The notes: a model not told the origin generated them from the letters alone. A stretch of 64,000 bases of DNA from Myxococcota bacterium (GCA_041288095.1 JBGGMJ010000022.1:21754-85753); one strand, 5' to 3'; positions 14,708 through 55,767 are shown, numbered from the stretch's first letter. A program made the numbers and translations.

Positions 14708-14733
14708 CAACGAATCGGCGCGCACCGCGATGA
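14708..14733 (+). promoter_or_regulatory. candidate sigma-28-like promoter
   Basis: CAAC-N14-CGCGATGA upstream of 14785; same spacing as the other copies, weaker -10. Confidence 0.45.
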
Positions 14734-14784
14734 TGGTCGATGCGCCTCTCTCAGGCGCACCAATCCTACATTCCGGAGATTTCC

Positions 14785-15192
14785 ATGGCGCTGCCTGAAA
14801 CCCAGCCGTTGCGTGCGGGTGTTTCTTCCTCGGGGGCCCTGCAGGGTCCTTCCACTCCCGCGACCCGCTCGTCGGTTGCGCTCGATCTCTCGGCTGGCTT
14901 CACCACGGGTGAGCACGGGAGCGCGCGCCTGTTGCTCCGCGACCGCGACTGGGACCGTCACCGTCACTATGATCGCAACGATCGCTGGCCGGGCCCGCAC
15001 CGTCCCGGTCCTTATCGCCCGTATCCGCCGCCATACTATCCGCCGCGTCCCTATCCGGTTCCGATCCCGATCCCCGGCTACCCCTCGCCGCTGCCGGGCC
15101 CGCTCCCGGGCGAGCGCGCCTGCTATCCCTGGGAAGCCGGGAGCTGGGGCTCGCGCCAAGACGTGTTCGGCCGCTGGTGGTGCCGCTGGTAG
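14785..15192 (+). CDS. Pro/Arg/Tyr-rich small hypothetical protein (135 aa)
   Basis: ATG 14785 with GGAGA RBS; fills the gap between two minus-strand genes; strongly patterned composition. Confidence 0.6.
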   Translation: MALPETQPLRAGVSSSGALQGPSTPATRSSVALDLSAGFTTGEHGSARLLLRDRDWDRHRHYDRNDRWPGPHRPGPYRPYPPPYYPPRPYPVPIPIPGYPSPLPGPLPGERACYPWEAGSWGSRQDVFGRWWCRW

Positions 15193-15229
15193 CAGCGGGT
15201 CTCTCGCTCGCCGCGAGGTTTCCTCGCGG

Positions 15230-15673
15230 CTACGAGTGATCGTCCTCGGCCTGCGGCATGCCGGGGATCTGCGCCAGCTCATGGGCGCGGTCCGCCGCCG
15301 CCTTCTTGCGCATCACCGTGAGGAACTCGCGGATGTAGCGCTCGATCGCCTTCTTGTCCTTGCGCGTGATCTTCACGAACTCGAGACCCATGCCCTGAGC
15401 GAAGGAGCTGCTGTCGTCGCTCTTGGCGGTCGACCAGCGCACGATGCACGTCGCGGTGATCGGTGTTTTTTGCTCGGGCAGGGTGAACGAGACGTCGAAC
15501 TCCGAGCCGCGCGGCATGGGGTTCGGCGTCGCGATGAACACGCCGTTGTTCGAGATGTTGGTGATGCGGCTCTTCAGGAGCACGTCGCGGCCCGGGTAGT
15601 CCGGCGCGATGAATACGCGCGACGGGACCCGGAAGTACCGCGACAGCACCGCGATGGGGATCTCGCCTTTCAC
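15230..15673 (-). CDS. PilZ domain protein (myxobacterial TIGR02266-like)
   Basis: RYFRVP...NISNNGVFI...F.LP...VRW...GMGLEF pattern. Confidence 0.85.
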   Translation of the reverse strand: MKGEIPIAVLSRYFRVPSRVFIAPDYPGRDVLLKSRITNISNNGVFIATPNPMPRGSEFDVSFTLPEQKTPITATCIVRWSTAKSDDSSSFAQGMGLEFVKITRKDKKAIERYIREFLTVMRKKAAADRAHELAQIPGMPQAEDDHS

Positions 15674-15693
15674 GCTTGGGGATCCTAACCGAA

Positions 15694-18312: not shown

Positions 18313-18335
18313 GCGGACATGAGGCTTAGCTGCGA

Positions 18336-19052
18336 ATGATCGGTTCACGCAACGCCATACTCTTCGACACACTCGGCGGCGCGTATACCGCCCTGACCGA
18401 GCACGCCCTTTGGGCGAAGCAAAACCAGGAGCTCGCCAAGCACTGGGGTGAGCTCGGGCCGTCGGCGACGGTTCTGGAGCTCGGGCCGGGCACCGGCATC
18501 GGGACATTGGCTCTCGAGAAGCACCTGCCTCCCGGCGCGCGTATCATCGGTGTCGACATCGTTCCGGCCATGGTGGCGCGGGCCAAAAGGCGCCTCGAGA
18601 GGGCGGACCTGCCGGCGACGCGCGTCGAATTCCGCGTTGGTGACGCGACGGCGCTGTCCGAAGTCGCGAGCAACTCCGTGCACGCGGTCGTCGCCAACAG
18701 CTTTCTCTACCTCGTGCCGGAGCCCGCGAAGGTGCTCGCCGAGATCCACCGCGTCCTCGCTCCCGGCGGCCGCGTGGTCTTCATGGAGCCTTGCGCCGAG
18801 GTCGATTGGCTCGCCACCGTGCGCTGTGGGGTGAGTCACGCCGGCGTCGTGGTGCGCGATCCGGTGGCTTCGGGGCAGCTGCTTGCGGCGATGACGGCCT
18901 GGTTCGTGGCGGGTTCGTTCGTTGGTCGGCGTAGCCGGGGCGAGCTCACGCAGCTGTTTCGCGACGCTGGTTTCGACAAGGTCGAATTCAAGCTGACGCT
19001 CTCGGGGTTGGGGCAACACGTCATCGCCCAACGATCGTCCTCGGACTGTTGA
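18336..19052 (+). CDS. class I SAM-dependent methyltransferase
   Basis: VLELGPGTG, GVD, GDA and RVLAPGG motifs. Confidence 0.9.
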   Translation: MIGSRNAILFDTLGGAYTALTEHALWAKQNQELAKHWGELGPSATVLELGPGTGIGTLALEKHLPPGARIIGVDIVPAMVARAKRRLERADLPATRVEFRVGDATALSEVASNSVHAVVANSFLYLVPEPAKVLAEIHRVLAPGGRVVFMEPCAEVDWLATVRCGVSHAGVVVRDPVASGQLLAAMTAWFVAGSFVGRRSRGELTQLFRDAGFDKVEFKLTLSGLGQHVIAQRSSSDC

Positions 19053-19085
19053 CTCTTCCGCCTCGCAGGCGCTCTTAGAACCGGC

Positions 19086-22717: not shown

Positions 22718-25120
22718 CTAGAGCAGGTGTCGGGCGTCCGCCCAGACGAGCAGTGGCAGCGCCGTTGCCCACAGCTGCGTCGCGTTCCCCGGCCACGAAT
22801 CGTACGGCTCGTTCGGCTTGCCGACGAGACCCTTGGCGACGAGACGTCCGTTATCGAAGCCATAGCCGTAAAGCTCGGAGGTCTGAAGCGGACCGGCGGT
22901 GGCCGCGAGCTTCTTGATGATGCGCACCGTGTCGCGTGCGATGGCGGCTTCCTCTGGCTTGCCCGCGCGCTCGAGCATCTTCGCCTGGTGCGTGAGCGCG
23001 GCGACGCCCAAGGCCTCGAGCCAGGTCCACACCAGTGTTCCGTGATAGCGGCCTGGACCCATCATGTCGTAGAGGCGCGCGTCTCCGGCCAGCGCGGCGT
23101 TGGTAATGAGGATGCCGGCCTCGGTGGCAAGGCCCAAGGGATAGGGGAGGGTGATGAGATCGCAAATCGCGCGCACCGCCTCCGGCCGCGCCTGGCTACC
23201 CAACAGACCAAAGAGACCGTCGGACGACATCACGGGGATGCGGTTGCCCTTGGCGTCGAGTGAGACCGCCGGGAACGTGAGGCCGTCCTTGAAGCGGCCC
23301 GTGAGTGGCGAGCCGTTGATGAAATCGTCGATGTGCACGAACGGCTCGATGGTGCGGCTGCCGAAGAACGCCCGCTCCTCGTCGGTCGCGAGCTCCTTCA
23401 TGAAGAAACGCAACGCCTTGCGCATCTCGTCCTGGGTCATCTTCACGGTGAAAATGTCGCGGGCATGCGCGCGCCAGACCGTCGCGTAGCGCTCGAGATT
23501 GGCGCTCGGCAGGCCCATGAGCTTCGCGAGCGCGGCGCCCTTCTCGAGGGCCGAGGGGACGAGCTCGAGATCGATGCTGCTCGAGAAGACACCGCCGGCT
23601 TCACCCACCTCGGAGTCGCGCCAGCTGCCGACCGGCAGGCCGAGCATGAAGCGGACCATCTTCGTCGGATCGTCGGGGTCCTCGGCGAACCCCTTGGCTT
23701 GACGAGTGATGAAGCCCAGGCTTTTCTTGATGTCATCGGCGTTGCTCGCGACGGCGCGTCTCTCGGCGCCTTGCACCAAGTCCGTGATCGAGGATCGATT
23801 GCGGTCAACGAAGGCCTCGCGGGCCGCGGGGTCGAGCTTGGGATCGAGCAAATGCTCGGAGAGCACCGAGACGAGCATGAAGTCGTCGTCGACCATCTTG
23901 CGGTCACAAATGCGCTCTTCGCAGGTCGTAGGGTCGAGGGTGCCGCCATGCTTCTCGATGTGCTCGAGCCGCTCGTGCACCGCCTGATCGAGCAGCGACT
24001 CCTCGTGGGTCACCTTGCCGTCGGGGCCTAGACGCTCGAGCGCCGCCTGTAGGATGCCTTCGACCACCTTGGGATCGAGCAGCGGACGCAACATCTGCAC
24101 CGTCTGCAAGGTGTCGCGACCGAAGTAGGTGAGGAAGCGCCAGCCGCCGGCGAGCGCCTTCTCCTTGAAGACGAGCGACGAAAGATCTTCGAGGGCCCGT
24201 ACCGCCGCGTTGAGATTGGCGGTCTCTTCGGGCGTCAACAGACCTGCTTTGGCGCGCTCGAGATCGGTCTTGAGAGCTTGGCGGGCGGGACCATTGAGCA
24301 GCTCGAGTGGCGCGTAGGGAGTCAGCGGCGGCACGTCGGTGACGTAGGAGACGTCGATGCGCGGCTTGCCGGCGGCGGTCGCGGTCACGTGGTTGTTCGC
24401 ATTGACGGACAGGGTCGTGCCGGGACCCGCTTCGATGATCATGCGATGGAGATGGTGCGGTGAGCCGTCTGCCTTGCGGCCGACCGACTCGCGCTCGAAG
24501 ACGATGCGGGTCGCTGACTGCTCCACGATGCGCGAGCGAATGGACTTTTCGGGGAGGCCGAGCTTGCCCTGCATCTGCTCGCGGAGCGCCGTGCGATCGT
24601 CGTAGCCGAGGGTCGCGCGGTCGCGATGGGCGCGCGCGCTGTCCAGGAGCGGCGGCTCGAAGGTCACCGCGCCCTTCGCGTTGGCGCAGACACGTACCTT
24701 GGTGCCGGTAAGGCCGCCATCGCGGACGAGGAGGGGATTCGACGCCGAAAGATTCGTGACCCCAGTCTCCGAAGTCCACCACATGCCGCCGGCGATGTTG
24801 TTCGCGGGTTGGACGATGGTGACCATGCGCTTGGCCGCGTGCTTCGGATAGCTCTCGAGGACGATGTGCGCCTGGGTCTCCGGTGAGACGAAGACGAGAT
24901 TTTGCTGCATGCCCTCGCGCTGGCGGTCGCCGAGGTCACGCTGGAACACGCGTCGGGTCGCCCCGAGGTCGGGGAAGGTGACAGGGAGCTTGGCCGGGCC
25001 GCCGGGCTGGTCGAGGTCGCGTACCGAGGGTTTCTGACGCGAGCGCGTCGTACCGCGCTCCTGCGTGGCGTTGGTCGGCGAAGTGCCGGTAACCCCTTGG
25101 AAACGCCTATCGACGCGCAA
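22718..25120 (-). CDS. putative (alpha/alpha)6 glycoside hydrolase (glycogen debranching / amylo-1,6-glucosidase-like) with N-terminal extension
   Basis: AGGWRFLTYFGRDT, HEES, KMVDDD, WRDS, YHGTLVW, SEL and QLW motifs; TTG start with GGGGAAG upstream. Confidence 0.7.
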   Translation of the reverse strand: MRVDRRFQGVTGTSPTNATQERGTTRSRQKPSVRDLDQPGGPAKLPVTFPDLGATRRVFQRDLGDRQREGMQQNLVFVSPETQAHIVLESYPKHAAKRMVTIVQPANNIAGGMWWTSETGVTNLSASNPLLVRDGGLTGTKVRVCANAKGAVTFEPPLLDSARAHRDRATLGYDDRTALREQMQGKLGLPEKSIRSRIVEQSATRIVFERESVGRKADGSPHHLHRMIIEAGPGTTLSVNANNHVTATAAGKPRIDVSYVTDVPPLTPYAPLELLNGPARQALKTDLERAKAGLLTPEETANLNAAVRALEDLSSLVFKEKALAGGWRFLTYFGRDTLQTVQMLRPLLDPKVVEGILQAALERLGPDGKVTHEESLLDQAVHERLEHIEKHGGTLDPTTCEERICDRKMVDDDFMLVSVLSEHLLDPKLDPAAREAFVDRNRSSITDLVQGAERRAVASNADDIKKSLGFITRQAKGFAEDPDDPTKMVRFMLGLPVGSWRDSEVGEAGGVFSSSIDLELVPSALEKGAALAKLMGLPSANLERYATVWRAHARDIFTVKMTQDEMRKALRFFMKELATDEERAFFGSRTIEPFVHIDDFINGSPLTGRFKDGLTFPAVSLDAKGNRIPVMSSDGLFGLLGSQARPEAVRAICDLITLPYPLGLATEAGILITNAALAGDARLYDMMGPGRYHGTLVWTWLEALGVAALTHQAKMLERAGKPEEAAIARDTVRIIKKLAATAGPLQTSELYGYGFDNGRLVAKGLVGKPNEPYDSWPGNATQLWATALPLLVWADARHLL

Positions 25121-25154
25121 AACGGCTTCCCCGCATTGTCGGATTCCCGATGCA

Positions 25155-25181
25155 ATATCGGCAGGCCGATGGGCGGAGTTG
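25155..25181 (-). promoter_or_regulatory. candidate sigma-28-like promoter
   Basis: Minus strand CAAC-N15-GCCGATAT about 35 nt upstream of the TTG at 25120. Confidence 0.65.
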
Positions 25182-25199
25182 CGTAGGAGCTTCCGCCGC

Positions 25200-25931: not shown

Positions 25932-28157
25932 ATGGAAGACGCCTTGAACCTGTTGGATGGATTGGACGTCGACATTCCAGACGTCCCCCTCCCGGCAGCG
26001 CGTCCGCAGCAGCAAGCACCCGCGACTAATCCCGAGTTCTTCGGTCCTTATCAACTGATCGAAGAAGTCGGCGCCGGTGGTGTCGCCAAGGTGATGCGCG
26101 CGCGGCACATCCATCCGCGCTACGCCGAGACGACCTTCGCCATCAAGATTCTCCATCCCGAGCTCTCGCGCGATCCGAAGGTCGTGCAGCTCTTCCGGCA
26201 CGAGGCCTACGTGCTGTCGATGCTCAAGCATCCCAACATCGTGCAGACCTTCGAAGGCGGCGTGCAGGACGAAGAGCTGTTCATCGCCATGGAGTACATC
26301 GACGGTCGCGACCTCGAGAACATGCTCACGCGCTGTCAGAAGGCGAAGAGCACGGTCCCGATTCCCGTCGCCATGTACATCATCGGCGAGGTCTTGAAGG
26401 GACTGTCGTACGCGCACGACCTCTGTGACGGCGATGGCAACCGCCTGGCGCTCGTGCATCGCGACATCAACCCCGCGAACGTCTTTCTCTCGTACGACGG
26501 CCGCGTGAAGCTCGGTGACTTCGGCGTCGCGTCGATGACCGCGGGCCGCGCCGAGAAGTCCCGCGAGACAGCGGGCAAGGCGGGCTACTTCGCGCCCGAG
26601 CAGCTCGCCGGTGAGCCCGTCGATCAGCGCGCCGATCTCTTCTCCATGGGCGTCATGATGTACGAGGTCCTGTGCAACGAGCGCCTCTTCGACGGCGATG
26701 ACGCCGAGAAGATCATGCGCTTGAACCGCAAGGCGAAGATCCCGCGCCCCTCGAGAGTGAACCCCGAGATCCCGCAGGGCCTCGAGGACCTCATGCTCAA
26801 GGCGCTCGAGCGCAAGCCCAACGACCGCTTTCCCAATTCGCGCGCCATGTACTTCGCGTTGCGTCCGTTCATCCCCGATCCGTCGGGCATGGCGCTCGCG
26901 GTGGCGGCGATGGTCCGCAAGGTCTTCCTGCGCGAGCACATCCAGGAGCTGCAGCTGCGTGAAGGTCTCGCCGGCGGCGGTAGCGCCTCGCGTGGCTCCG
27001 GCCAGCGTATCGTGGTGCTCTCGGAAGACGAGCGCGCGCACGCCGCCTTCAGCGAGCTCCTGTCGTCGCGTGGTTACCGCGTCGACGTCGCGACGCGCAT
27101 CGAGCAGCTCGCCAGCATGGTGGTCGGCCAGCACGCGCCTAATGTCGTTTTGGCGGACGTGGCGCTGCCGTCGTTCAACGCCGAGCAATTCGTGCGCGCC
27201 CTCGCTCCGGCGCAGCAAACCATCCCGGTCGTCGCGGTGAGCGAGGGGCTCGACACCGCCTGGATCCGCAACGCCGACGCCATCGGCTCGGTCGACCTGT
27301 TGTTCAAGCCGTTCAACATCGAGCGCGTGCTCACCGCGGTTCGCGGCGCCGTGACCGGGGCCGCGCGCGTCGCCATCACCGAACCGGCGGTCACCGAAGC
27401 TCGTCCGGTATCGCGGACGAAAATCCTGGTGATGACGCGCGATAACTCGTTCACGCACATCATCGCGCAGGGCTTCGCCGACCGCGGCTACAGCGTCGAG
27501 ATCGTTTCGAACGGGTCCGAGGCCATCGAGCGCGCCGACCAGACGACCTTCGACGCATTCGTCTACGACGCCTTCCCGCCGTCGCCCGCCGACCGCTTCT
27601 TCGCGTCGCAAGTGCGCGGACGCCCGGGCATGGGGCTCGTGCCGATCCTCTACCTGGTGCCGGCCGAAACGCAGACGCAGATCGTCGGCCTCGACGCTGA
27701 CCGCAGCGCCGTTCGCTTGCGCGGCGACTCGACGGTGGTGCTCGCCGAGACCTTGAATCGCTTGCTCGCCGACACGCGCTTGGGCCGCTCGTTCATCCGC
27801 TACCCGACGACCTTTCCGCTCGAGCTGCGCTACGCCGGACGCGTCTTTGCCGCCGAGGCCATGGACATCTCGCGCGGCGGTCTCATGTTGCGCTGCGAGC
27901 AGATGCCGCCGGTCGGCGAAGAGGTCAGCGTGTCCCTGCGCTTCGACCAGAGCGGTCAGCCCGTCGAGGCCTCGGGCAGGGTCATCCGCGTCGATCTACC
28001 GCGTCACGAAGGCGAGCCGCCGGGCATCGGCGTGTCGTTCGAGCGCTTCGCCGGGCGCGGAGAAGCTCAGCTGATCGCGCACCTGGCCACGCTCGACCGG
28101 AACGCCCAGCAGGTCAAAACCATGATCATGGGTGTGCCAGCGCCAGCCCGGGCGTGA
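25932..28157 (+). CDS. Ser/Thr protein kinase fused to two receiver-like domains and a C-terminal PilZ domain
   Basis: GAGGVAKV, AIK, HRDINPAN, DFG, APE; REC-like (SEDE...ADVALP...KPF); second degenerate REC; PilZ (RSFIRYP...DISRGG...GIGVSF). Confidence 0.88.
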   Translation: MEDALNLLDGLDVDIPDVPLPAARPQQQAPATNPEFFGPYQLIEEVGAGGVAKVMRARHIHPRYAETTFAIKILHPELSRDPKVVQLFRHEAYVLSMLKHPNIVQTFEGGVQDEELFIAMEYIDGRDLENMLTRCQKAKSTVPIPVAMYIIGEVLKGLSYAHDLCDGDGNRLALVHRDINPANVFLSYDGRVKLGDFGVASMTAGRAEKSRETAGKAGYFAPEQLAGEPVDQRADLFSMGVMMYEVLCNERLFDGDDAEKIMRLNRKAKIPRPSRVNPEIPQGLEDLMLKALERKPNDRFPNSRAMYFALRPFIPDPSGMALAVAAMVRKVFLREHIQELQLREGLAGGGSASRGSGQRIVVLSEDERAHAAFSELLSSRGYRVDVATRIEQLASMVVGQHAPNVVLADVALPSFNAEQFVRALAPAQQTIPVVAVSEGLDTAWIRNADAIGSVDLLFKPFNIERVLTAVRGAVTGAARVAITEPAVTEARPVSRTKILVMTRDNSFTHIIAQGFADRGYSVEIVSNGSEAIERADQTTFDAFVYDAFPPSPADRFFASQVRGRPGMGLVPILYLVPAETQTQIVGLDADRSAVRLRGDSTVVLAETLNRLLADTRLGRSFIRYPTTFPLELRYAGRVFAAEAMDISRGGLMLRCEQMPPVGEEVSVSLRFDQSGQPVEASGRVIRVDLPRHEGEPPGIGVSFERFAGRGEAQLIAHLATLDRNAQQVKTMIMGVPAPARA

Positions 28158-28194
28158 TGGCCGTCAGTCACAGGTGCTCCTGAGTCGTTTTCAG

Positions 28195-28220
28195 GAACCC
28201 TCGGCCAAACGCGTCGATAC
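28195..28220 (+). promoter_or_regulatory. candidate sigma-28-like promoter
   Basis: GAAC-N14-GTCGATAC 29 nt upstream of ATG 28250. Confidence 0.5.
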
Positions 28221-28249
28221 ACGCTGCTCACCATCAGGATGGGTGTCTC

Positions 28250-29317
28250 ATGAGCGTGAGCGTAAGCACGGGACGCACGGGTGTGTCCGCGCCGGTCTTG
28301 GCCCTGTTGCCGGTAGCGCGGAACACCGCGGGAAATCAGGTCCTCGTCGCCCAGGCGTTGGCGCGTCGCGGCGTTCTCGATGGGCTCACGCGAGACCAGG
28401 CTCAGGTCGTCGTCGCCTTCACCGCCGAGAAGCTAGGGGCGCAGTTCGACGCCGAGCGCGACTTGAACGGGGGGCGCCTCGCGGAGCACGTCGCCGACAA
28501 GATCGTCGGCAAAGACGAGTTCGAGAAGGCGCAGAAGAAGTCGAATCGTAAGTCGTGGTGGGTCGCCGGCGGTTTCTTCGCGGGGGGCATGCTCGCCTCG
28601 GGCGCGCTGAATATCGGCGTCGACCTGGCCTTCAAGGCCATCAACCAGCCGTGGGCCGCGAGCGTCAACACCGCGCTGTCGCCCGCGCTCTTCGTGGTCA
28701 GCGCCGCGCTGGTCGGCGCCGTAACCGGTCTGTTCGTCGAGAAGCTGACGACGCCGGTCGCCGCCTGGTTCACGCGCCTGTCCTTCAAGGGCAGCCCCAT
28801 CAAGTCGCACCTCGACACCAAGCTGGGCGCGAGCTTGATCGATGCCTACAACGGCGCGAACCAGGTCGACGGTCGCGTCTTCTCGGCGGCGTCGACCCTG
28901 TCCTCGCTCATCGTCAACCTCGAAGGCACGCTTTCGGGCGACGGTGGGGTCCGCTCTCTCATCCGCCAGGCACGCGCCGGTGGTGCCGACAAGAAAGCGC
29001 TCTTGCAAGAAGCTGGTGAGCAGCTCGGCGGCAAGCTCATTCAAACCGAAGTGGCGCACTTCCACCTCGACCCGATGTTCACCGAGATCTTCCGGCTCGT
29101 GCACGCGAGCGTCGGCGGCATCTTCCGCAAGCTCGACCCGGCCGATCAGGACACGATCATCGAATCCGCTCTGGCGTACGTTCGTGAAGCGCGTCCGAAC
29201 GAACCGGATGGTCAGCGACCCGACACCGGCAAGGCCATCGAGACCTACTTCGCGCCGTTTCTCACCCGCTTGGTGAAGGGCGTGCCGAAGCCCACGGGTG
29301 GCGCCAGTGCAAGCTAG
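28250..29317 (+). CDS. hypothetical protein with a hydrophobic helical hairpin
   Basis: 355-aa ORF with typical codon usage; two Gly/Ala-rich hydrophobic segments; no Sec signal. Confidence 0.8.
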   Translation: MSVSVSTGRTGVSAPVLALLPVARNTAGNQVLVAQALARRGVLDGLTRDQAQVVVAFTAEKLGAQFDAERDLNGGRLAEHVADKIVGKDEFEKAQKKSNRKSWWVAGGFFAGGMLASGALNIGVDLAFKAINQPWAASVNTALSPALFVVSAALVGAVTGLFVEKLTTPVAAWFTRLSFKGSPIKSHLDTKLGASLIDAYNGANQVDGRVFSAASTLSSLIVNLEGTLSGDGGVRSLIRQARAGGADKKALLQEAGEQLGGKLIQTEVAHFHLDPMFTEIFRLVHASVGGIFRKLDPADQDTIIESALAYVREARPNEPDGQRPDTGKAIETYFAPFLTRLVKGVPKPTGGASAS

Positions 29318-31049
29318 CCGCGGCAACACCGCCGGGCGCTCTCTGTTCGCCCCGCCGACAGCGAACAATCTCCAGGGCGACGTCGAGGGCTCGATCGCGC
29401 GCGTGGTCGCCAAGCCCAAGGCGAGCCGTGCCCTCTGGGTGTCCGGCGCGGCCTGGTTGGGTGGCGCAGCGGCCGGCGGCGGCTTGAACCTCCTCGTCAG
29501 CAAGTTCTTGCCGACCTACGCCGGCGCCGCGCAGCCGATCATCAACATCAGCACCGACGTCTTGCAGTCGCCCGGCGCTCTCGCGCGCGAGACCATCACC
29601 AATCCGATCAGCGCCTGGATCTACGGCCTCGCGAATTCCGGCGCCGAGACCGCGCCGGCAGTCGAGTTCGGCCAAGCCATCGGTCCGCGTCTCGCCGGCC
29701 AACTCGTCGCCGTCCAGCAGGAGCGCGGCAAGATCGACTCGTGGGTCGTCGGTGAGATGGGCGAGTTCAACATCTACATGCAGTCGGTCGAGGCCGCCGC
29801 CCGTAAGGCCAAGGCCCGGCTCGCTTCCGGTGACATCGACGGCGCGGCGCGTGCCCTCGGCGCCGCCATGTGGTTCGACTGGGGCGTCTGGGGTGAGCTG
29901 AGCCCCGACACCAGCCCGCGCATGTTCGAGCTCATGTTCGCGAACGTCCACTCGCTCTTCAAGCGCGTCGCGCCCGAGGTGCGCATGAAGCTTCGCGAGG
30001 CGGTGAAGGCCGAGGCGCTGCGCTTGAACGGCGGCAAGGACGACGGCTTGGTGGTGTTCACCGAGATCGTCATGGCGGGTATCACGGAGAACGAGAAGCC
30101 GAAGGCGCTGCTCGCGCCCTGGCGCAACGACAAGGGCGCCGCTGGGAAAGTCGGCGAAGGCAAGCACGCGGACCCGGAGGCCTGGGTCTCGGACCTACTC
30201 AAACACTACTTCGACGACTACGTCCGCCAAAACGGATGGAAGAAGGGTCTCGCCGTCGCTCGCCTCCGGGAGAAGCTCACGCGCGCCGTCGTCAAGGACG
30301 TCACCGAGCTCGAAGCCGCGCGCGGCTACCCGGCCTCCGCGGACGACCTCTGGCGGATGACGCTGCACGCCTATCAGAAGTCGTCGGGCGAGGGCCTCGA
30401 GCTGCGCGCCGCGGGCCTCTCCCTCGCGGCCTACATCGTGGTCGGTGTCGCGGCGGCGTTCGGTAGCCAGGCTATCTCCAAGATCTCGCCCGACTGGTCG
30501 AAGGCCGGCATCAACTCCTTCGTGTTCACGATGTTCGGCTACCTGATGTTTTTCGGAAACTTCTTCACCAGCAAGATCTCCGCGCTGGGCTCGACCATCG
30601 GCTACGGCGGCGGCCAGAAGAAGTCGCTCGGCAAGGCCATCGAACGCGAGGTCCGCAATAGCACCCTACGTCTCAAGACCCGTGACGCGCGCGAAGACGT
30701 GATCCACGGCTACTTCACGACGTTCGCCCGCCAGCTCTCCATGCAGGCCAACGAGGTCGCCGCGGCGATCCGTGCCGGTGATCTTGACGACGCAGCCGCG
30801 GCCATCGCCGGCATCACCCTTGCGGGCAACGTCAGCAACCACAACTTCTGGCCCTATCTCGAGATGATGGAGCGTTTCTTCAAGCGCATTGGTCCGTACT
30901 TCGATGGCATGACCACGGCGCAGCGCGACGAGATCGTGACCAAGGCCGCGGAGATCCTGAAGAGTCAGGGCGTCACCGCCGAGCAACTCGAGGGCTACTA
31001 TCGGCCGTTCATGGTCGGGTTGCTGACCGAGAACGTGAAGCTCAGCTGA
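29298..31049 (+). CDS. hypothetical protein containing two copies of the domain found in 28250-29317
   Basis: 583-aa ORF overlapping the upstream gene; internal and inter-gene similarity visible by eye. Confidence 0.8.
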   Translation: MAPVQASRGNTAGRSLFAPPTANNLQGDVEGSIARVVAKPKASRALWVSGAAWLGGAAAGGGLNLLVSKFLPTYAGAAQPIINISTDVLQSPGALARETITNPISAWIYGLANSGAETAPAVEFGQAIGPRLAGQLVAVQQERGKIDSWVVGEMGEFNIYMQSVEAAARKAKARLASGDIDGAARALGAAMWFDWGVWGELSPDTSPRMFELMFANVHSLFKRVAPEVRMKLREAVKAEALRLNGGKDDGLVVFTEIVMAGITENEKPKALLAPWRNDKGAAGKVGEGKHADPEAWVSDLLKHYFDDYVRQNGWKKGLAVARLREKLTRAVVKDVTELEAARGYPASADDLWRMTLHAYQKSSGEGLELRAAGLSLAAYIVVGVAAAFGSQAISKISPDWSKAGINSFVFTMFGYLMFFGNFFTSKISALGSTIGYGGGQKKSLGKAIEREVRNSTLRLKTRDAREDVIHGYFTTFARQLSMQANEVAAAIRAGDLDDAAAAIAGITLAGNVSNHNFWPYLEMMERFFKRIGPYFDGMTTAQRDEIVTKAAEILKSQGVTAEQLEGYYRPFMVGLLTENVKLS

Positions 31050-31107
31050 CGCCGCGGTAGCGCACGACATTGTCGGGTGCCGCGCGCTGCTCTATGGTGC
31101 GCGCCGT

Positions 31108-32586
31108 ATGAAACGACTTCTCGCTTTCGCGCTCGTCCTCGTCGCTGCCTGCAAAGACCGTCCGGCCTCACCCACCGTGGGTGCCGACGCGCCCAAGGTC
31201 GCCGCGGCGGACGCCCAGCCGACACCTCCGCCCGCGCCCGTTTTCGCGGACATCGAAGCTTTCGACGACACCTACGGCATTTACTTCCAGGGCCAGAAGG
31301 TCGGCTGGATGCGCAGCACCTTCACCCAGGACGGTGTGCTCTCGACCGAGCTCTACGCCAAGGTCGGCGGCATGGGGCAGGTCTCCGAGGTTCGCTTCGA
31401 CGAGAAGCGAGCTTACGGGGTCGACAGGCAGCTAGCGCGTATCTCGTTCTCGCAGAGCGCGGCGACCGGAGCCGTGCAAGTGGTCGGCGAGCGCCAGGGT
31501 GAGAAGCTCAAGGTGACCACCACGGCGGGCGGCAAGAGCTCGTCCGAGGAGATCGTCGCCGCCGAGACCATCGACGACGCGCTCGAGCTGCAGAAGCTCG
31601 CCAAGGCGCAGAAGGTTGGGGCGACCGCGACCTCCAAGCGCTACGACCCATCGATCCAGAAGATCGTCACCGCGAATCATGTCACCAGCGGCATCGAGAA
31701 GAAGGCTTTCGGTGGCGTCGAGACCGAGGTCGTGAAGATCGACACCACCTATCCGGACCTCGGCATCGCCGAGAGCGCCTGGGTCGATGCCAAGGGTAAG
31801 ACCCTCGAGTCGCGCATCGGCGGCTTCTTCGTCGCCCGGCTCGAGCCGCCGGAGGAAGCGAAGCGGCTGGACTACAGCCAGGACCTGCTGGTCTCGGCGG
31901 TGGTCGCGGTGCCGAAGCCCATCGAAAAGCAGGCCGAGCTCAAGAAGCTCACTGTCCGTTTCAGCGGTTTCGCGGGTGTCGCCCCACCACCGCAGTCGAA
32001 GCGCCAGGCGCAGACCTGGAGCGGCGAGGACTTGGTCTTGTCGCTGACCAAAGAAGCTCCGCCAAAGCAGCCATGGGCCGCCGACAAGCCGCTGCCGGCC
32101 GAGTCGCCCGCCGACCTCGCGGCCACCGCGTTCGTGCAGAGCACCGATCCCGAAATCATCGCCGCCGCCAAGGCCGCCGTGGGCGACGCCAGCGACGTGT
32201 ACACCGCGACCACGCGTCTCGCGCAGTTCGTCTATTCGTACGTCGAGGACGAGTATGTTCCCGCTTACTCGAACGCTCTCGAAGCCCTGAAATCGCGGCG
32301 CGGCGACTGCACCGAGCACAGCGTCTTGTTCGTGGCGTTGGCGCGGGCGCTCGGCATACCGGCGCGCGTCGCGGTCGGCATCGCCTACTGGCAGCCCGGC
32401 CATGGTTTTGGCTGGCACGCTTGGGCCGAGGTCTTCGCCGGCGGCGCCTGGTACTCGGTCGACCCGACGTGGAATCAACCGATCGCCGACGTCACCCACG
32501 TGAAGCTCGCCGATGGTGGTCCCGCCGAGCAGGCGCGGATCGTCATGTTGCTCGGCCGCCTGCGCGTGCTCGATGTCCGAACCTAA
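31108..32586 (+). CDS. transglutaminase-like domain lipoprotein
   Basis: VAA-C lipobox; GDCTEH, WHAWAEV and VDPTW catalytic triad motifs. Confidence 0.9.
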   Translation: MKRLLAFALVLVAACKDRPASPTVGADAPKVAAADAQPTPPPAPVFADIEAFDDTYGIYFQGQKVGWMRSTFTQDGVLSTELYAKVGGMGQVSEVRFDEKRAYGVDRQLARISFSQSAATGAVQVVGERQGEKLKVTTTAGGKSSSEEIVAAETIDDALELQKLAKAQKVGATATSKRYDPSIQKIVTANHVTSGIEKKAFGGVETEVVKIDTTYPDLGIAESAWVDAKGKTLESRIGGFFVARLEPPEEAKRLDYSQDLLVSAVVAVPKPIEKQAELKKLTVRFSGFAGVAPPPQSKRQAQTWSGEDLVLSLTKEAPPKQPWAADKPLPAESPADLAATAFVQSTDPEIIAAAKAAVGDASDVYTATTRLAQFVYSYVEDEYVPAYSNALEALKSRRGDCTEHSVLFVALARALGIPARVAVGIAYWQPGHGFGWHAWAEVFAGGAWYSVDPTWNQPIADVTHVKLADGGPAEQARIVMLLGRLRVLDVRT

Positions 32587-40895: not shown

Positions 40896-41555
40896 TTGGC
40901 CAGCGAGTTCCTCACGCGTGACGACGCTTTGCCGCCCGAGACGCTCGTGGCGATGCGAGCCTGGCTGGCCGGGAGCGATCTGGTGGGCGCGAGCCCCTTG
41001 AAGGGCACCTTCCGAGCGAGCCGCGGCTTTGCCATCACCTTTACGCGTGCGGGTATCGGCGAGCTCGAAAGGCGGTTCCCCGCGCTTCGACCTTTCGTCG
41101 ACACCGGCGTGCTGGCGCGCCCATGGCGAGCGCTCCATGGCCCCCTCGGCTGGTTGCGCGAGACCCGCGCCTTCTACCTCAATGTCTTGGTCGTGCCCGC
41201 TGGAGCGAACGTCGCGCGCCATGTCGATGCCACCCTCGGCCCGCGGCTCGGCGCCGCCACCCTGACGCCGCTCGCGGTCAGCGTCCTCTACCTCGACACG
41301 CCGCCGGGTGGCTTCCTGCGCTTGTGGCGGGGCAAGGACCAGGTCGCCGAGCTCGTTCCCAAGCCTGGACGTTTCGTCTGCTTTCGCGGAGACCTCGCGC
41401 ACGAGGTCGCGGTCGTCGAAGGCGAAGGTGAGCGCCTGAGCATCGTCTGCGAACAGTACGGCTGCTCGCGCCGCGAGGCCGCGCGCGTCCCACCCTTCGA
41501 GGTGAATTCGCACGGCCGCTTCGGACGCGTGCTCGAGCGCATCGCCGCCAAGTAG
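40896..41555 (+). CDS. 2OG-Fe(II) oxygenase family protein
   Basis: HVD...H(EV)...R.S pattern; GAGGAG RBS before TTG. Confidence 0.8.
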   Translation: MASEFLTRDDALPPETLVAMRAWLAGSDLVGASPLKGTFRASRGFAITFTRAGIGELERRFPALRPFVDTGVLARPWRALHGPLGWLRETRAFYLNVLVVPAGANVARHVDATLGPRLGAATLTPLAVSVLYLDTPPGGFLRLWRGKDQVAELVPKPGRFVCFRGDLAHEVAVVEGEGERLSIVCEQYGCSRREAARVPPFEVNSHGRFGRVLERIAAK

Positions 41556-47231: not shown

Positions 47232-48692
47232 TTACGCGGCGTCCTTCTTCTCGCGGTGGATGCGTGGCTTGAGGCTGCCCGCGAGGACGATGCGCTTGAT
47301 GCTGGCATCGTCAGGCACCGAGTGCACCAAGTCACGGAAGATCTTTTCGAAGATCGACGTGAGACCGCGGCCGCCCGTACCGCGCGCCATGCCGAGCTTC
47401 GCGAGCTCCTTGACGGCGCCCGGCTTGATCTCGAGCTCGACGCCTTCGAGCGCGAAGGTACCCTTGTATTGCTTGGCGAGCGCGTTGCGTGGCTCCGTGA
47501 TGATCTTCGCGAAATCGTCGAGGCTGAGGGGCATGAGGCCGGCGATCGCAGGGAAGCGTCCAACGAGCTCGCGCATCATGCCGAAGCGAACCAAGTCCAC
47601 CGGTTCGATGGATGAGTAGACCTCGCGCGCATCGACCTTGTTGCGCTCTTCGGCCGACTTGGGCTCACCACCGAAGCCAATCGAGGGTTTTGCGTCGACG
47701 TCTTCGGCTTGCTTGCGGGCCTTCCAGATGTCCTCGATGCCCGAGAAGGCACCGCCGGCGATGAACAAGACGTTGGTCGTGTCGAACTTGATGAACTCGC
47801 CATTGGGATGCTTGCGGCCGCCTCCCGGTGGCACGTTGAAGACACCGCCTTCGACCATCTTGAGCAGCATCTGCTGCACGCCGGCGCCGGAGACGTCGCG
47901 GGTGATCGAGGCGCTCTCGCCTTCGGGCTTACGCTTCTTGTCGAACTCGTCGATGAAGAGGATGCCGCGCTGGGCTTTCTCGACGTCGTTGTCCGCCGCG
48001 GCGATCAGCTTCAGGAGCATGCCTTCGACGTCTTCGCCGACGTAGCCGGCTTCGGTGTACGAGTTGGCGTCCACGATGTCGAAGGGCACGTCGAGGAGCT
48101 TCGCGATGCTGCGCGCGATGAGCGTCTTGCCGACACCGGTCGGGCCGATGAGGAGGATGTTCGCCTTCTCGAGGATGTCGTCGGGTACCGGCACGCCGCG
48201 CGCCTTGCAGTCATCGATCTGCGCGGTGCGCTTCAAGTGCTGATAGACCGCGTTCGCGACCACCTTCTTCGCGAGCGCCTGTCCCCAGACGTACTGGTCG
48301 AGGTGCTTGACGATCTGCGACGGCGTCGGGATGTCGGCGAGCAGCGGGTTGCGCGAGATCGGCAACGGTTGGATCGAGGCGACCTGGCCGGCGAGCAGAG
48401 GGTGGAGCACCATGCCGTTGAAGCGGCTGGCGTCAGCGCCCGCTTTAGCGTTCAGCTCTTCGACGGCGCTCAGGGTCTTGAGGAAGGTCTCGGGTCCGTG
48501 GGCGTGAACCGCGCCGCGAACCGCATCCAATGCGTCCTTGAAGGCTTCGACGTTGGGGTGGCCTTCGGCGCCCTTCAACACGGTCTCGAGCTCGGTTTGG
48601 TTCGCCGGCGCCTTTTCGGGGACCAACGAGCCCTTTCTGAGGGCGAGGTACGCTTCACTACCAACAAGAGGAAGAATGCCAAAACTGCTCAA
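47232..48692 (-). CDS. clpX: ClpX-like AAA+ ATPase lacking the C4 zinc-binding domain, with a novel N-terminal domain
   Basis: LDQYVWGQ, GPTGVGKT, GYVGEDVE, IDEFDK, RDVSG.GVQQ.LLK, RKHP and IGF loop; TTG 48692 with GGAGG RBS; no CxxC pairs in the N-terminus. Confidence 0.9.
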   Translation of the reverse strand: MSSFGILPLVGSEAYLALRKGSLVPEKAPANQTELETVLKGAEGHPNVEAFKDALDAVRGAVHAHGPETFLKTLSAVEELNAKAGADASRFNGMVLHPLLAGQVASIQPLPISRNPLLADIPTPSQIVKHLDQYVWGQALAKKVVANAVYQHLKRTAQIDDCKARGVPVPDDILEKANILLIGPTGVGKTLIARSIAKLLDVPFDIVDANSYTEAGYVGEDVEGMLLKLIAAADNDVEKAQRGILFIDEFDKKRKPEGESASITRDVSGAGVQQMLLKMVEGGVFNVPPGGGRKHPNGEFIKFDTTNVLFIAGGAFSGIEDIWKARKQAEDVDAKPSIGFGGEPKSAEERNKVDAREVYSSIEPVDLVRFGMMRELVGRFPAIAGLMPLSLDDFAKIITEPRNALAKQYKGTFALEGVELEIKPGAVKELAKLGMARGTGGRGLTSIFEKIFRDLVHSVPDDASIKRIVLAGSLKPRIHREKKDAA

Positions 48693-48728
48693 AACAGCCT
48701 CCAAATCGCTGCCATGTCGTCAGTTTTC

Positions 48729-48754
48729 CTATCGGCACGATTTTTCGGAGGTTG
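48729..48754 (-). promoter_or_regulatory. candidate sigma-28-like promoter for the clpX-like gene
   Basis: Minus strand CAAC-N14-GCCGATAG. Confidence 0.7.
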
Positions 48755-48794
48755 TGTGCTGGACCCAAGATTTATTGATCTGATGGCACTTCAT

Positions 48795-48820
48795 CAATCA
48801 ACACCGTCGCGACCCGATCG
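48795..48820 (+). promoter_or_regulatory. candidate sigma-28-like promoter
   Basis: CAAT-N14-CCCGATCG upstream of 48880. Confidence 0.45.
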
Positions 48821-48879
48821 GAAGGGCGGGGGCGGGTCGGTGGGGCGCGCCGGTGGGATTCCGTGGTATGCCTTTTCAT

Positions 48880-50565: not shown

Positions 50566-50611
50566 GACCTCCCGAATATAGACATGAAAGCACCCCGAGC
50601 ACACCCCATCG

Positions 50612-50647
50612 ACTCAAATGGTCAAATACATGCTTGACTGTTTGAGT
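50612..50647. promoter_or_regulatory. inverted repeat, candidate ArsR operator overlapping a TTGACT -35 box
   Basis: ACTCAAATGGTCAA-N8-TTGACTGTTTGAGT (12/14 matching arms) between the divergent regulator and efflux genes. Confidence 0.65.
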
Positions 50648-50668
50648 TGCCTTACCCATCTTCGGGGC

Positions 50669-54700: not shown

Positions 54701-55008
54701 CTTGCCGTTTGCGCTTGCGACCCATCCTCATGACGTCGATCGCGTTCATCATGGGCGTCTGGCCGCTGGTGGCCTCACACGGCGCCGGCTCCGAGATGCG
54801 CCACGCCATGGGTGTCGCCGTCTTCGCCGGCATGATCGGCGTGACATTTTTCGGATTGTTGCTCACGCCCGTCTTCTACGGCGTCATCCGCCGCTTGGTG
54901 GACAAGCGCGAGCGGGCGGCCTTCAAGCCCGTCCTCTATCGCGTACCGGAGGACGGTGTCGCCAGTAATGACGACGGCCGTCCAGCGGGTTTTTTCACGG
55001 CAGGCTAG
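51781..55008 (+). CDS. RND efflux permease (HAE1, MexF/OqxB-like)
   Basis: FFIDRPVFA, GIVVDDAIVVVENVER, KNAILIVEFA and RLRPILMTS. Confidence 0.96.
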   Translation: MRIARFFIDRPVFAAVISIIIFVAGAISVFQLPISEYPEVVPPTVVVRAMYPGANPKVIAETVAAPLEQEINGVENMLYMSSESTSDGAMTLTVTFRIGTNLDTAQVQVQNRVAQAQVRLPEDVRRFGVTTRKSTPDLTMVVHIVSPDGRYDETYLRNYAALQIKDTLARIPGMGEVQLFGSGDYAMRIWLDPRKLAAKNLTASDVVAALREQNVQVAAGTLAQQPAPNGESFQLAINTRGRLTTESEFADVIIKASESEGTVRVADVARVQLGADQYALRALLNNQAAVAIPIFQTPGSNALELSNQVRASMEELSKSFPDGVAYRIAYDPTRFVRASIEEVVRTLFEALALVVLVVLIFLQTWRASIIPIAAVPVSLVGTFAVMQLLGFSINALSLFGLVLAIGIVVDDAIVVVENVERNIEAGLSPIEATRKAMDEVSGPIIAIALVLCAVFLPIAFISGLTGQFYRQFALTIAISTVISAFNSLTLSPALAAKLLLAHDAPKDRLSRGIDKLFGWFFRPFNRFFAAASNRYVGAVRTLLRRSSLALVVYGGLLALTYVGFDKVPTGFVPGQDKQYLVAFAQLPDASSLSRTDEVIRRMGDIAKETPGVADTIAFPGLSIAGFTNSPSAGIVFVGLTSFEERRAPELSGNAIAATLNQKFGAIDEAFVAIFPPPPVQGLGTTGGFKLYIEDRGDAGLEALYEATQGFVGAGRQAPELAGLFSGYQVNVPQLYADVDRAKAKTAGVPLTNVFETMQANLGSLYVNDFNRFGRTFRVTVQADQGFRERPEDITALKTRNLAGEMVPLGTLVTVRPAHGPDRVSHYNGYPAAEVNGSAAPGYSSGQALASVTRIAANTLPIGTKFEWTDLTYQQIMAGNTAALIFPLCVLLVFLVLAAQYESWSLPLTVILIVPMCLLAAITGVWLDGGDNNLFTQIGLFVLVGLACKNAILIVEFARDEQKKGVNAFHAVLEACRLRLRPILMTSIAFIMGVWPLVASHGAGSEMRHAMGVAVFAGMIGVTFFGLLLTPVFYGVIRRLVDKRERAAFKPVLYRVPEDGVASNDDGRPAGFFTAG

Positions 55009-55553
55009 CTGCGGCGCTTCTGGTCGCGTCGCTGGTGCTCCATGAACACCTGCCACACGTGTTTCACTTCGCTCGCGCCCTCGACGTTGTCGTCGGCCAT
55101 GCCCAGGCGCTCGACCTCCGCTTCATGCGGGTCGGTGCCGGAGATGAAGACGTGACCCTTGCGCATCTCGGCTTCGATGGCGCCGACTTTGCGGACCACT
55201 TGCTCGGGTGCCGTGAGGGCGCCGAGTTGGCCGGCTTGGGCGTGGGCGATGTCCGCTTGAGCGACCTGCTGCGACTTCGTCGCGCGGGGCTCCTTGGCGC
55301 TCGCCATGGCGTGATGCCAATGGTGAGTGTCGTTCGCTAGCTGTTGCGCCTTGACCAGGGCCTCTTCGCGGTTGTCGTTCTTGACGGTCGCGTCTTGGCG
55401 TCGCGAGGCATTTTGGTCGGTGTTCTTCCAGGCATCGTACTGCTGAATCTCTACCAGCCATTCGTCGTTCAGCGTTGCATGCATGTGTCGGGTCTCCTGG
55501 ACCTGAACACGGCGTTGGGCACGCAAGCCGTCGATTGATATATCGGAATCCAT
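55005..55553 (-). CDS. hypothetical protein (182 aa, hydrophilic)
   Basis: Strong AAGGAG RBS; fills the intergenic gap; no recognisable domain. Confidence 0.7.
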   Translation of the reverse strand: MDSDISIDGLRAQRRVQVQETRHMHATLNDEWLVEIQQYDAWKNTDQNASRRQDATVKNDNREEALVKAQQLANDTHHWHHAMASAKEPRATKSQQVAQADIAHAQAGQLGALTAPEQVVRKVGAIEAEMRKGHVFISGTDPHEAEVERLGMADDNVEGASEVKHVWQVFMEHQRRDQKRRS

Positions 55554-55636
55554 AGCTCCTTATCCTTGAGTGCCCGCTATCGAGCGGGCGTTCTGCAAAT
55601 ACACACCCGACATTCGCATCGAGCGTTACGACCGGC

Positions 55637-55662
55637 TTATCGGGTGCGCCAGCGGATCGTTG
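55637..55662 (-). promoter_or_regulatory. candidate sigma-28-like promoter
   Basis: Minus strand CAAC-N14-CCCGATAA. Confidence 0.7.
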
Positions 55663-55740
55663 CGCCTCGATCTGTGACAATTTCGCGCAAAGAAAAACCC
55701 CCGCCAGACCGCATAATTACGGCCCCGGCGTAGAGTCAGA

Positions 55741-55767
55741 AGACACGCGGACGCGAGCGCACGATAA
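55741..55767 (+). promoter_or_regulatory. weaker candidate sigma-28-like promoter
   Basis: AGAC-N15-CACGATAA 28 nt upstream of ATG 55796; good -10, poor -35. Confidence 0.4.

Follow-up and report, generated by a model that had tools for sequence, protein, structure and literature searches.

The 64,000-nucleotide (nt) stretch of Myxococcota DNA analyzed here, hereafter the window (G000:C22:21754-85753, from GCA_041288095.1), carries scattered genes preceded by a common bipartite, promoter-like motif. Its genome (G000) is a 5.85-Mb assembly of 212 contigs with 66% G+C and 90% completeness. A preliminary description of the window had cited seven copies of this motif, all of which lie where they had been reported and on the same strands; by score and conservation, the copies at 25154(-), 55636(-), 48728(-), 14705(+), and 28192(+) hold, whereas those at 48795(+) and 55738(+) do not (Table 1). 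Scores refer to a two-block position weight matrix (PWM) trained on G000 over four rounds, the final one with 399 upstream regions, and allowing N14 or N15 between the boxes. Conservation was read from alignments with three genomes of the same genus (G001, G002, and G003; 66-88% DNA identity here).

Table 1. Promoter-like sites and genes discussed in the text (positions without a prefix are those of the window; other positions are given as genome:contig:coordinates)
Feature	Coordinates	Strand	Remarks
Promoter-like site ACGCAAC-N15-GCCGATAT	25154..25184	-	Spacing class 17; 23.4 bits, top score of the window
800-aa gene	22718..25120	-	Gene call; 0 Pfam families at 1e-5
Promoter-like site GCGCAAC-N14-CCCGATAA	55636..55665	-	20.9 bits
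182-aa gene, no known family	55005..55553	-	From list of open reading frames (ORFs); shorter call has 0 Pfam families
Promoter-like site ACACAAC-N14-GCCGATAG	48728..48757	-	17.5 bits
AAA+ ATPase gene (AAA_2/AAA domains)	47232..48626	-	PF07724 at 4.7e-24; "clpX-like" in the preliminary description
Promoter-like site TCACAAC-N14-CGCGATGA, weaker -10	14705..14734	+	14.4 bits
135-aa gene, no known family	14785..15192	+	0 Pfam families for the 14740 call
Promoter-like site CAGGAAC-N14-GTCGATAC	28192..28221	+	14.0 bits
Co-directional genes: 344/355 aa and 580 aa without family, then transglutaminase-core protein	28250..32586	+	
Cited site CAAT-N14-CCCGATCG	48795..48820	+	Under 9 bits (the listing cut-off); lacks support as a motif member
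Cited weak site AGAC-N15-CACGATAA before 571-aa pepD-like gene	55738..55768	+	9.8 bits
Extra PWM match GGGGAAC-N14-GCCGATAC in 2OG-oxygenase gene	41052..41081	-	16.0 bits
sig2	G000:C92:35188-36072	-	294 aa; TIGR02479 at 163.7 bits; outside the window
sig1	G000:C127:21744-22571	+	275 aa; TIGR02479 at 166.1 bits
Canonical FliA/WhiG member	G001:C2:523490-524125, G005:C48:33774-34400, G016:C289:3219-3854		215-237 bits
p159	G000:C92:36185-36664		159 aa; adjoins sig2
p138	G000:C92:36795-37211		TPR repeats (Pfam)
p185	G000:C92:37386-37943	-	MXAN_2434 family; hydrophobic stretch, strongly conserved C-terminus
Motif before p185	G000:C92:38059-38088		17.6 bits
Motif before sctJ operon	G000:C92:24292-24321		18.4 bits
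Motif before sctV	G000:C31:5775-5805		18.5 bits

The 25154(-) site lies 34 nt upstream of the start of the 800-aa gene, and its boxes are kept in two of four aligned genomes (G000 and G002), not in G001 or G003; no Pfam family at 1e-5 backs the earlier label of this gene as glycoside-hydrolase-like. Both boxes of 55636(-) are kept in all three alignable genomes (G000, G001, and G002) around a varying spacer, and those of 48728(-), identical in G001 and G002, are likewise kept in 3/3 alignable genomes including G000; G003 has no alignable stretch at either site. At 14705(+), both boxes are kept in all four genus genomes although the spacers diverge, and 28192(+) is kept in two of three aligned genomes (G000 and G002). 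The gene starts that had been proposed behind 55636(-) and 14705(+), at 55553 and 14785, are preferable to those of our gene caller (55484 and 14740), given a conserved GGAG and ATG at the former and a conserved GGAG-ATG at the latter in sister-species alignments. The two remaining cited sites are not supported as motif members: G002 and G001 show a deletion or divergence around 48795(+), and 55738(+) is without conservation in sister species. The motif had also been reported as missing before several other genes, and indeed we found no intergenic match of at least 12 bits before hup, arsR/RND, the permease, or nag. Ahead of the serpin gene, however, there is the intragenic match 41052(-), situated 270 nt upstream and not conserved in G001 to G003, which is probably a chance occurrence.

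Genome-wide, a simple codon-bias gene caller gave 5010 genes with approximate start codons and 2921 upstream regions of at least 40 nt, totaling 398.6 kb (398,612 nt). The consensus of the motif is cGCAAC-N14(15)-GCCGATAA (119 + 48 sites of G000); the -10 half in the 119 sites reads G(64)C(69)-CGATA-A(62), and the spacer and flanks are free of information in the site alignment. The core AAC-N16-CGATA occurs 149 times upstream of and facing a gene, against 28 occurrences in sense coding sequence (5.44 Mb), with 65 upstream antisense occurrences (divergent regions being counted twice) and 32 in antisense coding sequence. A further 63 upstream sense sites have the spacing AAC-N17-CGATA, and neighboring spacings are rare (5 for AAC-N15-CGATA, 4 for AAC-N20-CGATA); likewise, CAAC-N14-nnCGATA occurs upstream 120 times and its N13 version once. 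At thresholds of at least 13, 14, and 16 bits, the PWM finds 363, 336, and 270 upstream sense sites, as against 11.0, 6.65, and 2.45 expected under a first-order Markov model. The density of sites of at least 14 bits is 492 per Mb-strand in non-coding DNA and 14 in coding DNA, and for 379 of the 416 non-coding matches (91%), a gene in the same orientation begins no more than 300 nt away (median 41 nt). The motif is therefore a real element of fixed geometry, oriented toward genes and conserved. The upstream enrichment anticipated in the preliminary description is very strong and depends on both spacing and strand, and the regulon of seven units that it envisaged is in fact far larger, comprising ~350-400 promoters in G000.

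These properties bear on whether the element might be a transcription-factor binding site or a dispersed repeat instead of a sigma promoter, a reading that we find scarcely credible. Dimeric regulators can have bipartite sites; yet the two halves are unlike, the element is directional as described above, just two adjacent spacings are tolerated, and its -10 half is that of sigma-28 promoters. Because the flanks, like the spacer, carry no information, it is not a repeat element.

In the open complex of Pseudomonas aeruginosa sigma-28, GCCGATAA occupies positions -15 to -8 and TCTAAAG positions -36 to -30 (PMC12784957). The -10 half of our motif is identical to the former, and CGCAAC falls at -35 to -30, replacing TAAA(G) in the same register and sharing three of six bases (C-35, A-32, and A-31) with the sigma-28 -35 element. 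The geometry of sigma-28 promoters that had been claimed for the motif is supported. The canonical pattern TAAA-N15-GCCGATA occurs 0 times in G000. None of the 51 tRNA/tmRNA calls of G000 has a motif match of at least 12 bits upstream, and many of these stretches show TTGAC-N17-TAnnnn by eye. Since the housekeeping promoter is hence conventional, the motif belongs to an alternative sigma factor. We note in passing that the housekeeping -10 upstream of tRNAs is weak at its last position (e.g., TATGAC, TACAGA, and TAGACG).

The genome yields 36 Sigma70_r2 matches, two of which come from proteins, sig1 and sig2, that approach the FliA/WhiG model (NCBIfam TIGR02479, curated cut-off 189.6 bits). 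A sigma-28-family gene, as had been expected in this genome, is thus present in two sub-threshold forms (164-166 bits). The 36 matches, and the ~30 sigma genes of extracytoplasmic function (ECF) size, might also invite the reading of the motif as an ECF (group 4) promoter, the more so as an AAC in the -35 box and a CG in the -10 box, with 16-17 nt between them (AAC-N16-CG), is the geometry of many ECF promoters. ECF sigmas are typically autoregulated, yet 0 of 31 callable sigma genes have a site of at least 13 bits within 400 nt upstream, and the -10 element is the eight-base GCCGATAA, not a short CGTC-type box; the motif, furthermore, tracks sig2 between genomes and sits in the sig2 cluster (see below). 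Given this extended -10 box and the lack of such sites before the callable sigma genes, we disfavor an ECF promoter and consider it very improbable.

The sigma-28-type assignment is consistent with the features of sig2 itself. Among NCBIfam families, TIGR02479 scores best on it, the alignment spanning positions 1-223 of 224. A profile of 14 sig2 orthologs matched the PDB chains of WhiG (6pfv, 4.8e-35), Escherichia coli FliA (6pmi, 1.4e-34), and Aquifex FliA (1rp3, 4e-32), as well as FliA 9wsm, with SigF and SigA chains well behind. The protein has the architecture of group 3 sigmas, with Pfam regions r2 and r4 and a profile that runs end-to-end on the WhiG/FliA chains, preceded by an extra low-complexity N-terminal tail of ~70 aa. 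In region 2, sig2 retains the -10-binding segment of FliA/WhiG, with FMTFAYYRIRGAIYDGLR corresponding to F.TYA..RIRGAM.DELR of FliA. The recognition helix of region 4.2, by comparison, reads LSKSWTSRLH in sig2 versus VGESRVSQLH in E. coli FliA. Residues S224 and Q228 of this helix make base-specific -35 contacts in P. aeruginosa sigma-28 (PMC12784957). Assuming that this numbering transfers, the -35-reading residues are not all kept in sig2, where the first Ser is retained but Gln is replaced by an invariant Arg and the neighboring Arg by Trp. The helix SKSW[TAS]SR recurs in 79 of 80 sig2 homolog loci (regular expression plus C-termini by eye), with SKSWTCR in the other (L127). The changed helix would explain the changed -35, and the shifted -35 preference proposed in the preliminary description finds a counterpart in a sigma factor that differs, by alignment, at presumed base-reading positions.

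On contig C92, sig2 is the last gene of a conserved co-directional cluster (p111, p185, p138, p159, and sig2). A non-flagellar type III secretion system (T3SS) cluster lies 11 kb away on the same contig (SctJ, FliG-like, SctL, SctN, YscO-like, FliK-like, FliM/N, FliO, FliP, FliQ, and FliR), with SctV on the separate contig C31. Motif sites precede p185, the sctJ operon, and sctV, so that the motif heads non-flagellar T3SS operons in place of the flagellar and chemotaxis late genes of classical sigma-28 regulons. The units sharing it are accordingly less unrelated than had been thought, since the promoter type also heads T3SS operons and the gene cluster of the sigma factor. The earlier view of a non-flagellar regulon agrees with our finding no flagellin (PF00669) in the 90%-complete G000 assembly. 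The top NCBIfam match of p138 is the SycD/LcrH class II T3SS chaperone family TIGR02552 (37.4 bits, 1.8e-9, positions 4-120 of 136), below its cut-off of 104.8.

This arrangement recurs widely. Among 80 sig2 homolog loci, fetched down to 40% identity, p185 stands alongside in 46 and p138 in 54. In the 44 loci usable for a promoter tally, p185 (MXAN_2434-like) lies two genes upstream of sig2, and a site of at least 14 bits is found within 330 nt before it in 37, versus 0/44 in the antisense control; such a site is present in all 19 loci with sig2 identity below 50% (Myxococcaceae, Archangium, and similar). Across the 80 loci, 101 motif matches fall on the sigma strand versus 12 on the opposite one. 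The complete genome G111 has the order p185, TPR, small ORF, sigma, SctJ, ... SctU, ... SctV, and its T3SS cluster bears five coding-strand sites in 21 kb (24.1, 16.5, 22.1, 18.9, and 20.2 bits). Its p185 homolog falls into one 90%-identity cluster with MXAN_2434 of Myxococcus xanthus DK1622, and its sigma homolog (278 aa) is equal in length to MXAN_2437 (837 nt). MXAN_2437 is a sigma-70 family factor, SigF being a different gene, MXAN_0785 (supplement of PMC9548883), and the needleless T3SS (T3SS*) cluster of M. xanthus has been delimited as mxan_2434-2464 (PMC12075869). Thus, the motif is linked to T3SS genes, and sig2 is, judging from these alignments, a member of a Myxococcota-wide subfamily represented in M. 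xanthus by MXAN_2437 inside the T3SS* cluster.

We compared counts of the strict pattern in related genomes with those of a reversed-motif control. Within a set of 40 relatives, sig2 orthologs (63-99% identity) are present in 19 of the 21 genomes of the same genus or order as G000, and sixteen sig2-bearing genomes have 17-143 strict matches versus 1-9 in the control. Low counts among carriers were found in G007 (1 match; 65% complete, 1.9 Mb) and G012 (8 versus 2). G005 (60 matches) is no real exception, because the end of contig C83 truncates its sig2 gene, with the p159 and p138 homologs lying immediately alongside. G016 lacks sig2 and p138, has 12 matches versus 5 in the control, and looks like a natural loss of sig2; its family mates (family f6 of the same order) have 12-40 matches, most of them 20-40. 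Farther afield, 183 of 301 genomes of a phylum sample carry a sig2 homolog at 1e-40; the unpublished genome G173 of this sample enters the tallies only. In family f21, 0/45 genomes do, with 0-2 strict matches each. Genomes with a 50-63% identical homolog mostly have 15-53 matches, the lower values being those of G063 (10 versus 9), G047 (8 versus 0), G051 (7 versus 4), and family f23 (6-9); in family f17 (9-13 Mb, homologs of 42-50% identity), there are 0-22. The motif thus co-occurs with sig2. Because kin are not independent, we read this co-occurrence as a pattern, not as a test.

The same comparison bears on whether another sigma-28-family paralog reads the motif, be it sig1 or a canonical FliA/WhiG member lying possibly in the unassembled 10% of G000. 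Members above the family cut-off exist in G001, G005, and G016 (Table 1), sig1 reaches 166 bits on TIGR02479, and the top motif counts come from genomes that also carry sig1; with G000 90% complete, a canonical member may be present there. Against such a paralog, sig2 is the sole FliA-like match at 1e-35 in G004, G010 (100% complete), and G015, which nonetheless have 37, 19, and 42 strict matches versus 2-4 in the control. G016 possesses a canonical member, yet has 12 matches versus 5. As for sig1, it was not found in G004, G009, G010, or G015, and its region 4.2 (GVTDSRVCQLH) is FliA-like, so that a TAAA-type -35 is expected for it, whereas TAAA-N15-GCCGATA occurs 0 times. A paralog as reader is, we believe, unlikely. 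Separately, the relatives with a canonical member may lack flagella, and M. xanthus SigF (MXAN_0785, S-motility) might be the counterpart of that member.

Taken together, sig2 appears to be the most likely candidate for the reader of the motif. We consider it probable, from the sequence comparisons above, that an alternative sigma-28-family factor, most likely sig2, initiates transcription from these sites, which head T3SS operons, the sig2 cluster, and ~350-400 dispersed units, five of them in the window. Several observations weigh against this assignment. At 163.7 bits, sig2 remains below the FliA/WhiG cut-off of 189.6 bits, and the canonical FliA/WhiG member of same-genus genomes (215-237 bits), although not found in the 90%-complete G000, may exist there. 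No motif stands directly before sig2; the closest sites lie ~1.8-2.0 kb away on its upstream side, and the intervening stretch includes intergenic gaps of 112-174 nt, so that autoregulation of sig2 is unsupported. Seven of the 44 p185 promoters score below 14 bits, all in the window's own order. Motif counts are highest where sig1 is also present (91-143 in the genus, 60 in G005), and some f10 genomes without a sig2 homolog have 10-18 strict matches versus 2-4 in the control. Finally, the PWM was trained and counted on one genome, G000, with gene models from a home-made caller.

The gene adjoining sig2 encodes p159, a protein whose N-terminal half is variable and of low complexity, whereas its C-terminal half is conserved. 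It shows no FlgM domain: it has 0 Pfam (PF04316) and 0 NCBIfam families and no PDB sequence match at an E value of 10. An Atlas look-up gave no named neighbor of at least 0.9, the nearest being a YopR/PscH cluster at 0.77, in a range often reached by chance. We modeled the complex of sig2 (residues 66-294) and p159 with ESMFold2 and obtained a score of 0.70 (runs 0.70, 0.64, and 0.85), compared with 0.00 for the best of three controls. Of 157 solved complexes, 116 attain a score of 0.70, as do 2 of 215 mismatched pairs, a calibration that is rough because our own alignments were used; part of the score may also reflect likeness, because solved sigma-28/FlgM complexes exist. At least 34% of contacts are common to the runs, and the partner has a predicted local distance difference test (pLDDT) value of at least 58. 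The modeled interface comprises sig2 residues 154-202, 226-233, and 285-293 (domains 3 and 4) and p159 residues 70-155, i.e., its conserved half. The model supports binding of p159 to sig2, and we infer that p159 may be a FlgM-like anti-sigma factor. Members of the p159 family begin with MTRIGGG or MTKIGDG.

The first gene of the T3SS* cluster family, p185, and the position before sctJ offer some further observations. The p185 homologs (L065-L144) share a conserved C-terminus, ...SNxxKxxHDTxKNxIxN[VI]R, which is reminiscent of needle and rod proteins. The support is slight: Pfam searches of 28 p185 homologs returned T3SS_needle_F in two (best E value 0.021) and HrpA_pilin in one (E value 0.0027), one Atlas neighbor cluster of p185 has PF09392 on 11% of its members, and a PDB profile search with p185 gave nothing meaningful. 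The "needleless" label of T3SS* may deserve a second look. The small gene before sctJ in G111 (L231:13858-14433, plus strand; MXAN_2438 position) has a weak T3SS_basalb_I match (E value 0.0053, below the cut-off), and at the pre-sctJ position of G000 (C92:23691-24143, minus strand) there is a 150-aa gene with no family match, directly headed by the 18.4-bit motif.

Sites of at least 14 bits in G000 precede 405 first genes, on 135 of the 212 contigs, and those of at least 12 bits precede 498 distinct first genes. The idea that the regulon consists of a few expanded families was ruled out: 350 of the 405 heads have no paralog in the set, and the 55 with one fall short of the 64-66 that three background samples gave. 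Of the 60 best-scoring among the 498 first genes, 46 gave no Pfam family at 1e-4; the corresponding figures are 14 of 49 for window genes at 1e-5 (4 of these 14 being motif-headed) and 14 of 59 for genes of contig C92 at 1e-3, the thresholds differing slightly between sets. We further compared the regulon with 2079 other genes heading upstream regions of at least 60 nt, using crude home-made heuristics. Signal-peptide-like N-termini were found in 4.7% of regulon products versus 19.7% of the others (Fisher, 4e-16). Cysteine content was 0.66% versus 1.15% (Mann-Whitney, 6e-12), which holds among cytoplasmic-looking proteins, and 28% versus 16% of proteins of at least 150 aa were cysteine-free. 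Residues 2-30 were enriched in Pro (1.5-fold) and in Ser and Gln (1.27-fold) and depleted in Phe, Tyr, Leu, Glu, and Lys, although the N-terminal figures could be biased by miscalled starts. Low cysteine content, an absent signal peptide, and such an N-terminal composition are features of type III substrates, and many regulon products are candidate secretion substrates. Not all of them would be cargo, because the members include named enzymes and a kinase (a glutathione peroxidase, a homoserine dehydrogenase fusion, a serpin-like protein, a protein kinase, and hydrolases).

In G111, six exact-pattern sites lie outside the T3SS cluster, before script-picked ORFs with 0-1 cysteines (L238 is likely in another frame and was left uncounted). 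The six genes belong to no characterized family, with two domains of unknown function in one protein and two sub-threshold matches in another. Five of the six (L233-L238) have the N-termini MSRIDGG, MSRIDSR, MTRINSF, MSNRIG, and MNPIGKF, L237 being unlike the others. An M-S/T-R/N-I-D/N/G-like N-terminus, of a kind also seen in the p159 family, could be a shared export signal. Within the G000 regulon this trend is weak, M-[ST]-[RKN]-I-[DGNS] occurring in 2/405 regulon proteins versus 2/2079 others and [RK]I[DGNS] within the first 10 residues in 12/405 versus 23/2079. The exact pattern is found 87 times in the 5.85 Mb of G000 but 8-19 times in each of four complete f17 genomes of 9-13 Mb, and the window-site alignments reveal turnover of the regulon within the genus; regulon size differs greatly between lineages. 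As to the neighbors of the window sites, 25932-28157(+) encodes a 741-aa protein in which Ser/Thr kinase, receiver, and PilZ domains are fused, and near this gene, at 15230-15673(-), is a separate 147-aa PilZ protein.

If the promoter assignment is right, the sig2-containing RNA polymerase would recognize GCCGATAA as FliA does and, through the altered region 4.2 of sig2, CGCAAC. Expression of the secretion machine, of the sig2 cluster, and of numerous lineage-specific genes would depend on it, while p159 would hold sig2 until release, which might, by analogy with FlgM, occur by export. Tentatively, and with more doubt than confidence, we propose that the ancestral, needleless T3SS of Myxococcota has kept the flagellar secretion-coupled checkpoint in altered form. 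A FlgM-like p159 (MXAN_2436 position) would restrain a sigma-28-like factor of the MXAN_2437 family until the machine exports p159, and the freed sigma would then fire GCAAC-N14-GCCGATAA promoters. In the lineage of G000, the regulon would have expanded to ~400 units, and their products, mostly orphan, poor in cysteine, and lacking signal peptides, would be the cargo. Were this checkpoint to exist, the motif would be a direct way to list T3SS* predation effectors, including those of M. xanthus.

The T3SS* of predatory myxobacteria is required for prey lysis, and a cluster-encoded sigma with a sharp promoter is a candidate master regulator of it. The promoter rule lists candidate cargo genes in any Myxococcota genome (~8-19 exact matches in Myxococcaceae-type genomes, hundreds in G000). 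For the origin of injectisomes from flagella, it would mean that the earliest-branching non-flagellar lineage (PMC3459982) still uses a sigma-28/anti-sigma pair. For sigma factor biology, it would be a natural case of changed -35 specificity with changed region 4.2 residues, reading of the -10 remaining constant. The accessible parts of PMC12075869, PMC10849154, and PMC11804543 name no regulator or effector of T3SS*, and bioRxiv 2021.11.28.470282 mentions FliA for E. coli alone. MXAN_2435, MXAN_2436, and MXAN_2437 are absent from the searchable literature, in which MXAN_2434 appears merely as a range end. We found no openly accessible publication on this sigma factor or promoter, subscription papers and bioRxiv supplements having been outside the search.

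Among known systems, the closest parallel is FliA/FlgM. The -10 element and the -35/-10 register are the same, sig2 aligns to FliA over all three domains and is encoded beside a type III export machine, and p159, with its disordered N-terminal half, is modeled as binding sigma domains 3 and 4 (see above). In contrast to FliA/FlgM, CGCAAC replaces TCTAAAG and SKSWTSR replaces ESRVSQ, sig2 is below the family cut-off, no flagellin was found, the machine is a non-flagellar T3SS*, the ~350-400 promoters head mostly orphan genes, and p159 has no FlgM Pfam match, its export here being postulated by analogy. A second parallel is WhiG/RsiG of Streptomyces, in which a sigma-28-family factor has been co-opted in a non-flagellated bacterium (cf. 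PMC13595943 and PMC8325347). Moreover, WhiG (6pfv) is the best solved-structure match of sig2. However, WhiG presumably keeps the canonical promoter, and WhiG/RsiG differs from the system described here in its cyclic di-GMP (c-di-GMP)-armed anti-sigma, its small regulon, and its having no link to a secretion system. HrpL with its hrp box and BtrS/BtrA of Bordetella represent alternative sigmas dedicated to injectisome regulons, namely, ECF (group 4) factors with GGAAC-type boxes, and in Bordetella a secreted antagonist couples sigma activity to secretion. Here, too, a cluster-encoded alternative sigma would mark secretion genes and scattered effector genes by a common promoter, but this sigma is sigma-28-like and of group 3. 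The myxobacterial T3SS lineage has been placed as earliest-branching and secretin-less (Abby and Rocha 2012, PMC3459982). With the T3SS* of M. xanthus, the system shares the gene order p185, TPR, small ORF, sigma, sctJ; in G000, by contrast, 11 kb separate the sigma cluster from the sctJ operon and sctV lies on a different contig, and Myxococcaceae-type genomes differ from G000 in the 8-19 versus 87 occurrences of the exact pattern. Sigma-28 promoters and sigma factors dedicated to secretion systems are thus of an already known kind; new, in that we did not find it in print, would be a sigma-28-like subfamily with a -35 element of its own, tied to a basal needleless T3SS and to a regulon of hundreds of promoters.

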